Source: Octopus vulgaris (Eukaryota). From it: a stretch of DNA of 64,000 nucleotides. The DNA lies in contig OX597842.1 in assembly GCA_951406725.2 (NCBI GenBank), positions 34,038,001 through 34,102,000 of the forward strand. Direction: 5' to 3'. The first letter of the stretch is position 1. The number at the start of each line of letters is the position of its first letter. The notes beneath the pieces were generated by a model that was not told the origin of the DNA, searched no databases, and saw nothing but the letters and a program-made list of their open reading frames with translations. The position numbers and the translations under genes were made by a program. Shown piece after piece: positions 15,478 through 45,304 of the stretch.

Positions 15478-15672
15478 TACAAGTGGATGTTAAAAAGTCA
15501 CTGGTTTTAAGGTTATTACGAAACGCCGGGTTTACAGAGCTTAGAAAAACTGAAGGACCGCCGCGATAAATGTATGGATCTGAGAGGGGAATATGTTGAA
15601 TAAAATCATAATTAACTGACCCTCCTGAAGTTTCTTTTACCCAAAACCAGAAACTTTTCAAACCCTTTCGTA
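15478..15672 (+). mobile_element. Tc1/mariner-derived MITE
   Basis: TA at both ends and imperfect TIRs (tacaagtggatgttaaaaagtcactggtttt / aaaaccagaaacttttcaaaccctttcgta). An internal remnant translates RRDKCMDLRGEYVE*, resembling a mariner transposase C-terminus. Confidence 0.75.
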
Positions 15673-15770
15673 TAATTTTTATTTTCTCCCCTTCGGGATT
15701 TTCCCGTTTATTTAGCGGTCATTCTAAAGCTCTTTTGTTTGTCTTAATAATCTTAATATACATATATATA

Positions 15771-15957
15771 AGGCGCAGGAGTGGCTGTGTGGTAAGTAGC
15801 TGGCTAACCAACCACATGGTTCCGGGTTCAGTCCCACTGCGTGGCATCTTGGTCAAGTATCTTCTACTATAGCCTCGGGCCGACCAATGCCTTGTGAGTG
15901 GATTTGGTAGACGGAAATTGAAAGAAGCCCATCGTATATATATATATGTACATATAT

Positions 15958-15998
<41 letters not shown>

Positions 15999-16180
15999 TC
16001 CACCTAGCATTGCTTGACAACCGATGCTGGTGTGTTTACGTCCCCGTCACTTAGCGGTTCGGCAAAAGAGACCGATAGAATAAGTACTGGGCTTAAAAAG
16101 AATAAGTCCCGGGGTCGATTTGCTCGACTAAAGGCGGTGCTCCAGCATGGCCGCAGTCAAATGACTGAAACAAGTCAAAG
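15771..16180 (+). mobile_element. SINE family A, full length
   Basis: aggcgcaggagtggctgtgtggtaag...gactgaaacaagt. Confidence 0.93.
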
Positions 16181-16233
16181 AATATACATAGTAATTTCCC
16201 TTTGTTTAACGGTCATTTTCATAGCGTATTTGT

Positions 16234-16309
16234 TTGTCTTAATAACTGACGAGATGCCGGAGCAGAGATTGTGTCCCGACATCCGAAACTCGGAGTTTTA
16301 TTATGACAA
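16234..16309 (+). ncRNA. Type I hammerhead ribozyme motif, canonical core
   Basis: ttgtcttaataa-CTGACGA-gatgccgg...ccgacatc-c-GAAA-ctcggag-TT-ttattatgacaa. Stem I is 12 bp with one mismatch, stem II pairs gatg/catc and cgg/ccg, and the cleavage triplet is GUU. Confidence 0.75.
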
Positions 16310-16772
16310 CCGAATAATTATATATATACGAATGCCTATATACATATTCATATATGTGTGTGTGTGTGTGTGTGTGTGTTGTTTGTACGTGTGTTTGTGT
16401 AACTGTCTTTTTATCTATCTAGCAATCCAACCATGTATCTATCTATCATTCTATCAACTTATTCATTTGTCAGACTGAGTCTGTCTTTTTATTTAAGTAT
16501 CAAACTATTTATTTATCTATCTATCTATCCATCCATCTACCTACCTATATATCTACCTGTTTATCTATCTATATACCTGTCTAGCAATCTATCTATCTGT
16601 TTATCTATCTGTCTATCTATCTTTCTATCTACCCATTATCTATGTATGTATTATCTATTTATTTAGCCATTTACCTACATACCTATCTACCCACCCACCT
16701 ATCTACCTATCTCTCTATCTATCTACATTTCTACTCGTCTATCTACAGCAACAGCAAAACTACTCTCCCTCT

Positions 16773-44272: not shown

Positions 44273-44400
44273 CAGCAAAAATTTAGATTCAAATAAATAT
44301 GGTACTTAATTTAGATGCACCAGAATTTTGTATGGTGTTATCCATAAAAATCCGTGGGATGATTATAACCAAAATAAGCAACAAGAATGACTCCGGTAAT

Positions 44401-44487
44401 TTGGTACGATCGTTTCGTACTACATCATTTTATTAAATGTTGTAAGTATTACAACAGATTTAAGATGCTGAGTACTCATCAGCCCAT
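44401..44487 (-). ncRNA. Type I hammerhead ribozyme motif, canonical core and long stem II, in a fragment (44270-44519) flanked by (TA)n
   Basis: Minus strand: gg-CTGATGA-gtact…catc-ttaaa-tc-tgttgtaa-tac-ttacaaca-tttaa…gatg-t-agtac-GAAAC-gatc-GTA-cc. Palindromic stem III ACGATCGT. Stem I is only about 2 bp. Confidence 0.8.
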
Positions 44488-44515
44488 TATAGACGTTTTC
44501 CATTAATACAACAAT

Positions 44516-44580
<65 letters not shown>

Positions 44581-44632
44581 CATATATATATATTATGTAT
44601 GTATTATGTTTGTAAGTCTATATGTATTATGA

Positions 44633-44897
44633 ACTGGACCTGCTCTTTTTAACATCATTCCCAAAACATATAAAGGAGGAAAAAGATTTCATAACATTCA
44701 AAAAAATATTTGGATGAATATCTCCAACAATTTTCAGATAATCCACCTTCACCCAGATATACTGCTTCAAGCAACAACTCTTTAATCCAATGGGCAATGG
44801 TGCCTAAAAATGACTATCCAAAAATATATTACTAAATGACTTTTTCAGGTGGTGCTATTAAGTTAGCTATGGCCGGGGCCAATGTGGCCGAAACCTA
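44633..44897 (+). mobile_element. CR1/L2-like LINE 3' end, second family, frameshifted
   Basis: With two frameshifts it translates TGPALFNIIPK/HIKEEKDFITFKK/YLDEYLQQFSDNP…SSNNSLIQW, then a 3' stem-loop ggcc-aatgt-ggcc-gaaac. Confidence 0.72.
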
Positions 44898-45304
44898 TTT
44901 GAGTTCCACCGTCTAGGCTTAAAAAGCCCTTATCATTTGTTTCTCCTTGTCCTCTCTTTTACTGTTTTTATCTTTATTTGTATTTCTTTTACTGTCCTGT
45001 TCTTGTCACTTTTTTACCTCTCCGCAAAAAAGATGCCAAATTTTGTTTGGTTTGCTTTGCGGGAAGGACTGTTTCGGCGAGGTCGTGTCCTGCTCTTACC
45101 TTCGAAACACGCAATAAGTCGAAACAGGGGCAGCTGAGGAAGGGGAATGTTCCTTGTGTTGTATGTCTTGTAGTCTGTTTTTTCGTTGTTAAAAAAAGTC
45201 CCTTTTCCCTGTTTTGTTTTTATATTTTCGTTTCTCGCTGTGTTCTACGTTCTTTTGTGGTGTCCTGTACCCAAATATGCATGTATATATATACATATAG
45301 ATGT

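Follow-up and report, generated by a model that had tools for sequence, protein, structure and literature searches.

A SINE-interrupted type I hammerhead repeat of Octopus vulgaris that resembles the ribozymes of Penelope-like elements

Hammerheads of Penelope-like elements and retrozymes

The hammerhead ribozymes of Penelope-like elements (PLEs) are described as mostly single motifs with a long helix II and a palindromic 15.2-16.2 region (PMC4209133). Those with a small palindromic helix III cleave poorly, as dimers, and the same report records no cleavage of a Schistosoma mansoni monomer (PMC4209133). For the anole PLE Poseidon PAc, a hammerhead that requires protein was reported, with no RNA ends at the cut site, and hammerhead mutants left PLE insertion in vitro unaffected (PMC11167929). 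A survey of the O. vulgaris assembly assigned 6.83% of it to PLEs of 190 families, and a search of its supplement found no mention of hammerheads (PMC13282606).

A second group of described systems is formed by the retrozymes. Molluscs carry short non-coding hammerhead repeats, and coral retrozyme monomers with a 2-bp helix III were reported to cleave alone at about 0.8/min, compared with about 0.1/min for mussel (PMC7229834). Solo retrozyme monomers are said to be common and derived from PLE ends, and 8 of 9 Xenopus dimers showed no cleavage (bioRxiv 10.64898/2026.07.22.740005). Further comparison literature comprised 10.1101/2021.04.23.441226, PMC6765202, PMC6155905, and PMC11014351. A search of the literature on hammerheads in cephalopods did not recover the family described here. 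Invertebrate genomes are already known to contain such motifs by the thousand and, in that respect, the locus is an ordinary one.

The locus lies in a 64-kb stretch of O. vulgaris DNA (the window). It is probably a solo, SINE-interrupted member of a high-copy repeat with a type I hammerhead at its 3′ end, likely a PLE pLTR or a non-coding derivative of one, whose ribozyme is predicted to cut only as a dimer, through its palindromic helix III.

Anatomy of the hammerhead motif

A type I hammerhead core, read directly from the sequence, spans 16246-16297 of the plus strand. Its parts, and the 3′ strand of stem I, are as follows.

16246-16252, plus strand: core C3-A9, from the sequence; position 7 is C, T or A in relatives, and G8 shows a minor G>A change at a CpG
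16253-16284, plus strand: helix II and loop II, long and interrupted, from fold prediction; loop II is the most variable part
16285-16288, plus strand: G12-A15.1, from the sequence
16287-16297, plus strand: 11-nt palindrome that contains helix III (2 bp, 3-nt loop), within the G12-U17 block 16285-16297
16295-16297, plus strand: G16.2-U16.1-U17, from the sequence; the cut is predicted after 16297
16298-16319, plus strand: stem I, 3′ strand, followed by a short tail, from fold prediction and family comparison

The conserved core bases of type I hammerheads (C3-U4-G5-A6-N7-G8-A9, G12-A13-A14-A15.1, and U16.1-H17) are all intact, and the CTGACGA/GAAA/GTT core with a cut site after 16297, proposed in an earlier sequence-only reading, is present as described. 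The same reading had proposed a 12-position stem I with one mismatch, and this stem was recovered as 11 pairs and one U-U (16239/16304) between 16234-16245 and 16298-16309, with a predicted extension to 16227/16316. Stem I begins with 6 bp followed by a U, which is the spacing of canonical type I motifs. The label "canonical" given to the motif as a whole does not fit, because helix II is long, an extra C is present, and the palindromic helix III has only 2 bp. The helix II of canonical metazoan type I motifs (4 bp, with a short loop contacting loop 1) is absent; the predicted helix II has 10 pairs with interruptions, and the extra C, at its 3′ foot before G12 (16283/16284), must be bulged or inserted. 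Two traits of PLE pLTR hammerheads, a palindromic helix III/loop 3 and a helix II longer than the canonical one, are both found here.

A loose hammerhead descriptor gave two matches in the real window, compared with 0.775 per shuffled window, and matches with a stem I of at least 11 pairs occurred once in 40 shuffles. The predicted fold has a z-score of -3.34, with 0 of 200 shuffles equally stable; the opposite strand reaches -3.51, thus the z-score alone is uninformative on strand. Rfam returned no hammerhead match at its gathering score, nor among the 19 matches up to E 10. An ATG at 16254 was considered as the start of an open reading frame and set aside, as its frame gave no Pfam match and its context is non-coding. 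A 10-nt word is common to the SINE body (16015-16024) and the 3′ strand of stem I (16304-16313), probably by chance.

The window is rich in microsatellites, varies from 22 to 50% GC per 2-kb tile, and holds many copies of one SINE. At the curated cut-off, Pfam recognized no family in 113 selected frames of 350 candidates, and reverse transcriptase or GIY-YIG domains were found in 0 of these 113.

Leader duplication, SINE insertion and the family of relatives

The sequence upstream of the core consists of two leader copies separated by a SINE, and is bordered on its 5′ side by the remnant of another transposon.

15481-15672, plus strand: probable 3′ remnant of a DNA transposon of the mariner type; its broken frame is like the C-terminus of a mariner transposase and ends at TA, outside the hammerhead element
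15673-15764, plus strand: left portion of the hammerhead element; in 4 of 4 runs, uninterrupted copies carry sequence that matches its 3′ part upstream of position 16186
15700-15750, plus strand: upstream leader copy, without ribozyme, from repeat alignment; it stops where the core would begin
15755-15764, plus strand: left copy of a duplicated 10-nt word, a probable SINE target-site duplication
15771-16184, plus strand: SINE with a central (TA)/(GT) microsatellite, outside of which its identity to the 6 other near-full copies of the window is 93-95%
16181-16190, plus strand: right copy of the 10-nt word, which flanks the SINE
16195-16245, plus strand: downstream leader copy, whose last 12-19 nt form the 5′ strand of stem I

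The mariner-like remnant directly adjoins the hammerhead element, and a 30-aa piece of its frame found no match in Pfam or PDB. The 5′ edge of the left part is uncertain, and the element is probably 5′-truncated. A diverged direct repeat across a SINE had been proposed from the letters alone, and both components were confirmed: 15700-15750 and 16195-16245 align over 52 columns with 82.7% identity (blastn E 6e-8), with a repeat score of 55, whereas 2658 background tiles reached 28 at most, and the element between them resembles an octopus SINE family. No tRNA gene was called in the SINEs of the window. The duplicated word at the borders of the SINE is weak evidence on its own, since words of at least 10 nt were shared by 105 of 5000 random flank pairs.

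Relatives were sought in public sequencing runs. A query of 15480-16340 returned 24 runs, the best of which contained 0.63 of its words, so that no run resembles the whole locus. Six RNA runs shared 0.07-0.09 of the words and are not counted as evidence. Four of the 24, with three organism labels, were matched to 16160-16350 at 80% likeness: the DNA runs X1 (organism A, about 80% read), X3 (organism B), and X10 (organism D), and the RNA run X24 (organism D, about 6% read). Matches were found in 2356, 1473, and 1763 contigs of X1, X3, and X10, respectively, and in 302 of 12,895,792 reads of X24, with some records containing only the SINE tail. Homologous copies that keep the core, which the sequence-only reading had made a test of its proposal, were thus found in all four runs compared. 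One match among viral contigs (L001) and two among metagenome contigs (L002 and L003) were without stem I, helix III, and leader, and were therefore taken as chance.

These relatives bear directly on the history of the locus. Ahead of 16186, other copies in all four runs carry, in place of the SINE, sequence that matches the end of the upstream leader copy, including the family's upstream-unit word (15729-15738 in the window), which is absent from the downstream leader copy. Five joint rows (17 contigs) return from 16244-16248 to 16185-16187, and the leader period was 69 bp in 11 and 70 bp in one among the 12 of 38 joint rows listed. In the window, the leader copies lie 495 nt apart and the duplicated words 426 nt apart, a difference of 69. 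Since SINE-free relatives carry the leader twice at a spacing of 69 bp, as does this locus once the SINE is subtracted, the SINE has split the element. These relatives support an insertion of the SINE between two leader units, after the element was in place, in a comparison that uses paralogous copies. As the spacer bases agree poorly with those of the family, the exact value of 69 could in part be fortuitous. The 50-bp repeat was also considered as a long target duplication of the SINE, and rejected because it is present in SINE-free copies and is 17% diverged, compared to 5-7% between the SINE and its relatives.

The upstream copy lacks a core, and the same duplication occurs in other family copies; by sequence comparison, it is an internal 69-bp leader duplication rather than a second pLTR/retrozyme unit. 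Of the earlier proposal of a pLTR/retrozyme tandem later split by a SINE, the mobile family and the split are thus retained, while the second unit is replaced by a core-less duplication of the leader. That reading had mentioned neither the extra C, nor the palindromic helix III, nor the halt of the upstream copy at the border of the would-be core. The 69-bp unit itself seems to consist of two halves of ~35 bp, both starting with one 9-nt word (16207-16250 and relatives), and the core starts in the same register as these halves. The leader looks as if it had grown through successive duplications of whatever lay directly upstream of the ribozyme.

Sequence depth in the three DNA runs is maximal at 16286-16306, in the region of the GAAA, helix III, and the 3′ side of stem I, and is 48- to 63-fold lower in loop II. 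Among the 40 of 55 difference rows listed, the core positions 16246-16249, 16252, 16285-16291, and 16293-16297 show no variants, whereas position 7 (C/T/A), loop II, and the centre of the palindrome at 16292 (G/T/A) vary; 16292 is the sole variable base within 16285-16297 in these rows. Three changes, T>C at 16302, A>G at 16306, and A>T at 16308, are in the majority in 4 of 4 runs. Facing changes were found at 16241 (A>G, 22-29 contigs) and 16237 (T>C, 18-28 contigs), also in RNA, and form the complementary pairs 16302/16241 and 16306/16237 in all four runs, as a correspondence between columns that is not phased within individual molecules. Behind 16225, the consensus of the loose ends is complementary to the stem I 3′ strand of most copies. 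Compensatory change, seen in columns and in consensus, therefore supports helix I, and the two stem I subfamilies represent natural covariation. The locus copy is of a minority type: in the DNA runs, its base at 16306 accounts for no more than roughly 10% of the depth.

A double C precedes G12 in the consensus of the loose ends of all three DNA runs, with no deletion listed there, indicating that the extra C is a trait of the family; decay of the locus copy was thereby ruled out as its origin. The extra C is missed by standard descriptors and by Rfam. A literature search on hammerhead variants with an extra base found nothing relevant. Cleavage is slowed by a U17 and likewise by an additional base ahead of G12. 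In a 1996 selection study, an extra non-G base before GAA was reportedly tolerated at the cost of slower cleavage, and Lunse et al. (2016) are said to have described PLE variants that cleave as dimers, which may already cover the extra-base variant. The motif alignments of PMC4209133 may also include this form.

On the 3′ side, the locus copy departs from the family sequence at 16319, 22 nt past the cut site, and continues as (TA)n, whereas other family copies carry a shared word of about 10 nt followed by AT-rich, mixed sequence, so that the copies cease to resemble one another about 30 nt downstream of the cut. Joint rows between opposite strands, five in number and with 1-3 contigs each, connect 16191-16233 to 16229-16282 and may represent inverted, truncated copies, as known for PLEs. 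Typical of PLEs are partial copies in tandem or inverted order and a tail of 30-40 nt.

These features also bear on a different origin, which we consider unlikely, namely that the locus is a solo monomer of a non-LTR retrozyme or of a Sm-alpha-like short retroposon, a non-coding unit of 150-450 bp spread via circular RNA. The element measures about 230 bp without the SINE, has no open reading frame, is present in high copy and in RNA, and would fit the solo monomers from PLE ends (10.64898/2026.07.22.740005) and the repeats of molluscs (PMC7229834) described above. However, tandem hammerhead units of 150-450 bp were not found at the locus, where there is one core and an upstream repeat without a core. 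Tandem retrozyme arrays are made less likely by the 15 of 16 joint rows listed, none of which returns to the leader from a point past the cut site, though short contigs can hide such arrays, and no record in the four runs fitted two places at the locus. The mixed 3′ flank and a helix II that departs from the canonical 4 bp also speak against a retrozyme.

Predicted activity and comparison with known hammerheads

As a monomer, the RNA is predicted to form a rod that joins C7 to G12, G8 to the extra C, and CUGA to loop III, at probabilities of about 0.65, while helix III has a pair probability of 0.01. Relative to the ensemble, the active fold is less favourable by 6.7 kcal/mol, a value that, like the other nearest-neighbour energies given here, omits the tertiary contacts of the core and is uncalibrated against a known active ribozyme. 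The monomer is thus predicted to fold with its core paired away and to be inactive. The palindrome is predicted at -11.5 kcal/mol as a self-duplex and at +2.1 kcal/mol as a hairpin. An explicit double hammerhead (-42.5 kcal/mol) is level with two inactive monomers (-41.6 kcal/mol), and the dimer's own minimum (-49.1 kcal/mol) retains two core mispairs, C7-G12 and G8-C. In the predicted fold of the whole locus, including the SINE, stem I is lost. The upstream leader copy (15730-15751) is an alternative pairing partner for the stem I 3′ strand, at -11.0 kcal/mol compared to -13.3 kcal/mol for the proper strand, and a competing fold of this kind is possible in uninterrupted copies.

The window contains one other motif of this kind.

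44395-44490, minus strand (core C3 at 44482): second, unrelated hammerhead-like motif with a long helix II, a palindromic helix III, and a weak stem I

It is a typical PLE-type motif, also solo, and its active fold lies 7.4 kcal/mol above the ensemble, a similar score, so that these energies cannot rank the two motifs. The neighbouring sequence at 44620-44900 is non-repetitive and, by eye, shows a possible resemblance to the 3′ end of a LINE open reading frame on the plus strand.

In the RNA run X24, molecule starts and ends do not pile up, with none at 16298, and both mate directions cover the cut site alike. This is weak evidence, because the library consists of fragmented cDNA, the reads derive from many copies, and the organism label is another one.

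The sequence-only reading had singled out this motif as the most likely to cleave unaided. That view is not supported: the core of the monomer is predicted to be paired away, the architecture is of the dimer type, and no partner copy of the family lies within the 64-kb window. That the lone copy nevertheless cleaves itself, with the long stem I closing the junction and the weak helix III rescued by internal loops of helices I and II that touch each other, seems to us distinctly improbable. The core bases are intact, stem I has 11 pairs and an extension, and its first 6 bp and the following U match the canonical spacing. On the other side stand the 3-nt loop III, the pairing of C7 and G8 and of the core with loop III, the U17 and the extra base that slow cutting, the loss of stem I in the whole-locus fold and, weakly, the RNA of X24 without ends at 16298. 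The coral and mussel monomers with a 2-bp helix III, which cleave (PMC7229834), speak in its favour and against the dimer-only reading.

The opposite possibility is that the motif is inactive in any form and that the family retains a hammerhead-like fold for another role, such as binding of a transposon protein. The family-wide extra C and the mispaired core of the dimer minimum are in line with such a role, as are the anole PLE insertion that was unaffected by hammerhead mutants in vitro (PMC11167929) and the 8 of 9 uncleaved Xenopus dimers (10.64898/2026.07.22.740005). However, variants are listed for position 7, loop II, and the palindrome centre but not for the core positions given above, a pattern expected under catalytic selection; we give this possibility a small chance.

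The favoured reading, a solo PLE-like repeat that cuts as a dimer, suggests the following history. A 5′-truncated copy, consisting of two 69-bp leader units and the ribozyme, would have been retroposed into AT-rich DNA beside the mariner-like remnant, and the SINE would then have inserted between the leader units, as relatives support. In an active parent, by analogy with the literature, two motifs on a tandem transcript would meet and build helix III jointly, and cutting after U17 would then release a unit-length RNA. The lone copy, if transcribed, most likely would not cut efficiently without a partner. A more speculative extension, to which we assign little probability, is that the locus belongs to an undescribed, abundant, and transcribed family, probably of octopus, with the extra base before G12, in which the modelled monomer locks itself through CUGA and loop III, and pairing between copies, even from different loci, switches cleavage on, which would act as a copy-number switch. 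If the family cleaves with its extra C, genomic hammerhead searches undercount a class.

Compared with the non-LTR retrozymes of coral, mussel, and axolotl, the locus likewise has its type I hammerhead in a short, non-coding repeat that is low in GC, present in many copies, and transcribed, and the axolotl motifs were also described as working better as dimers (PMC7229834; 10.64898/2026.07.22.740005). Unlike these retrozymes, it shows no tandem hammerhead-bearing units, and its helix II is non-canonical.

The resemblance to Poseidon PAc of Anolis includes a hammerhead near the 3′ end of the insertion, an AT-rich target, the lack of RNA ends at the cut (here in X24), and an ATG at the start of helix II, whose frame here is non-coding with no Pfam match; the copy here differs in stopping 22 nt after the cut site (PMC11167929).

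The locus most resembles PLE hammerheads with a small palindromic helix III, and on this resemblance a Penelope parentage is likely, although none of the 113 frames selected in the window matched a reverse transcriptase or GIY-YIG family. Like the PLE motifs of Drosophila virilis Penelope, rotifer, and shrimp (Cervera and De la Pena 2014, PMC4209133), it is of type I, with a long helix II, a palindromic 15.2-16.2 region, many dispersed single copies, and several subfamilies with compensatory changes, and it shares a bulged base in helix II with the D. virilis Penelope motif (PMC4209133). The differences from these PLE motifs lie in stem I, which has 11-17 bp here compared to 2-5 (4-5 in the PLE minimal motifs), and in the extra base, which is 3′ of helix II here and between 9 and 10.1 in the minimal motifs (PMC4209133). 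The leader built of 69-bp duplications is a further difference from PLE hammerheads.
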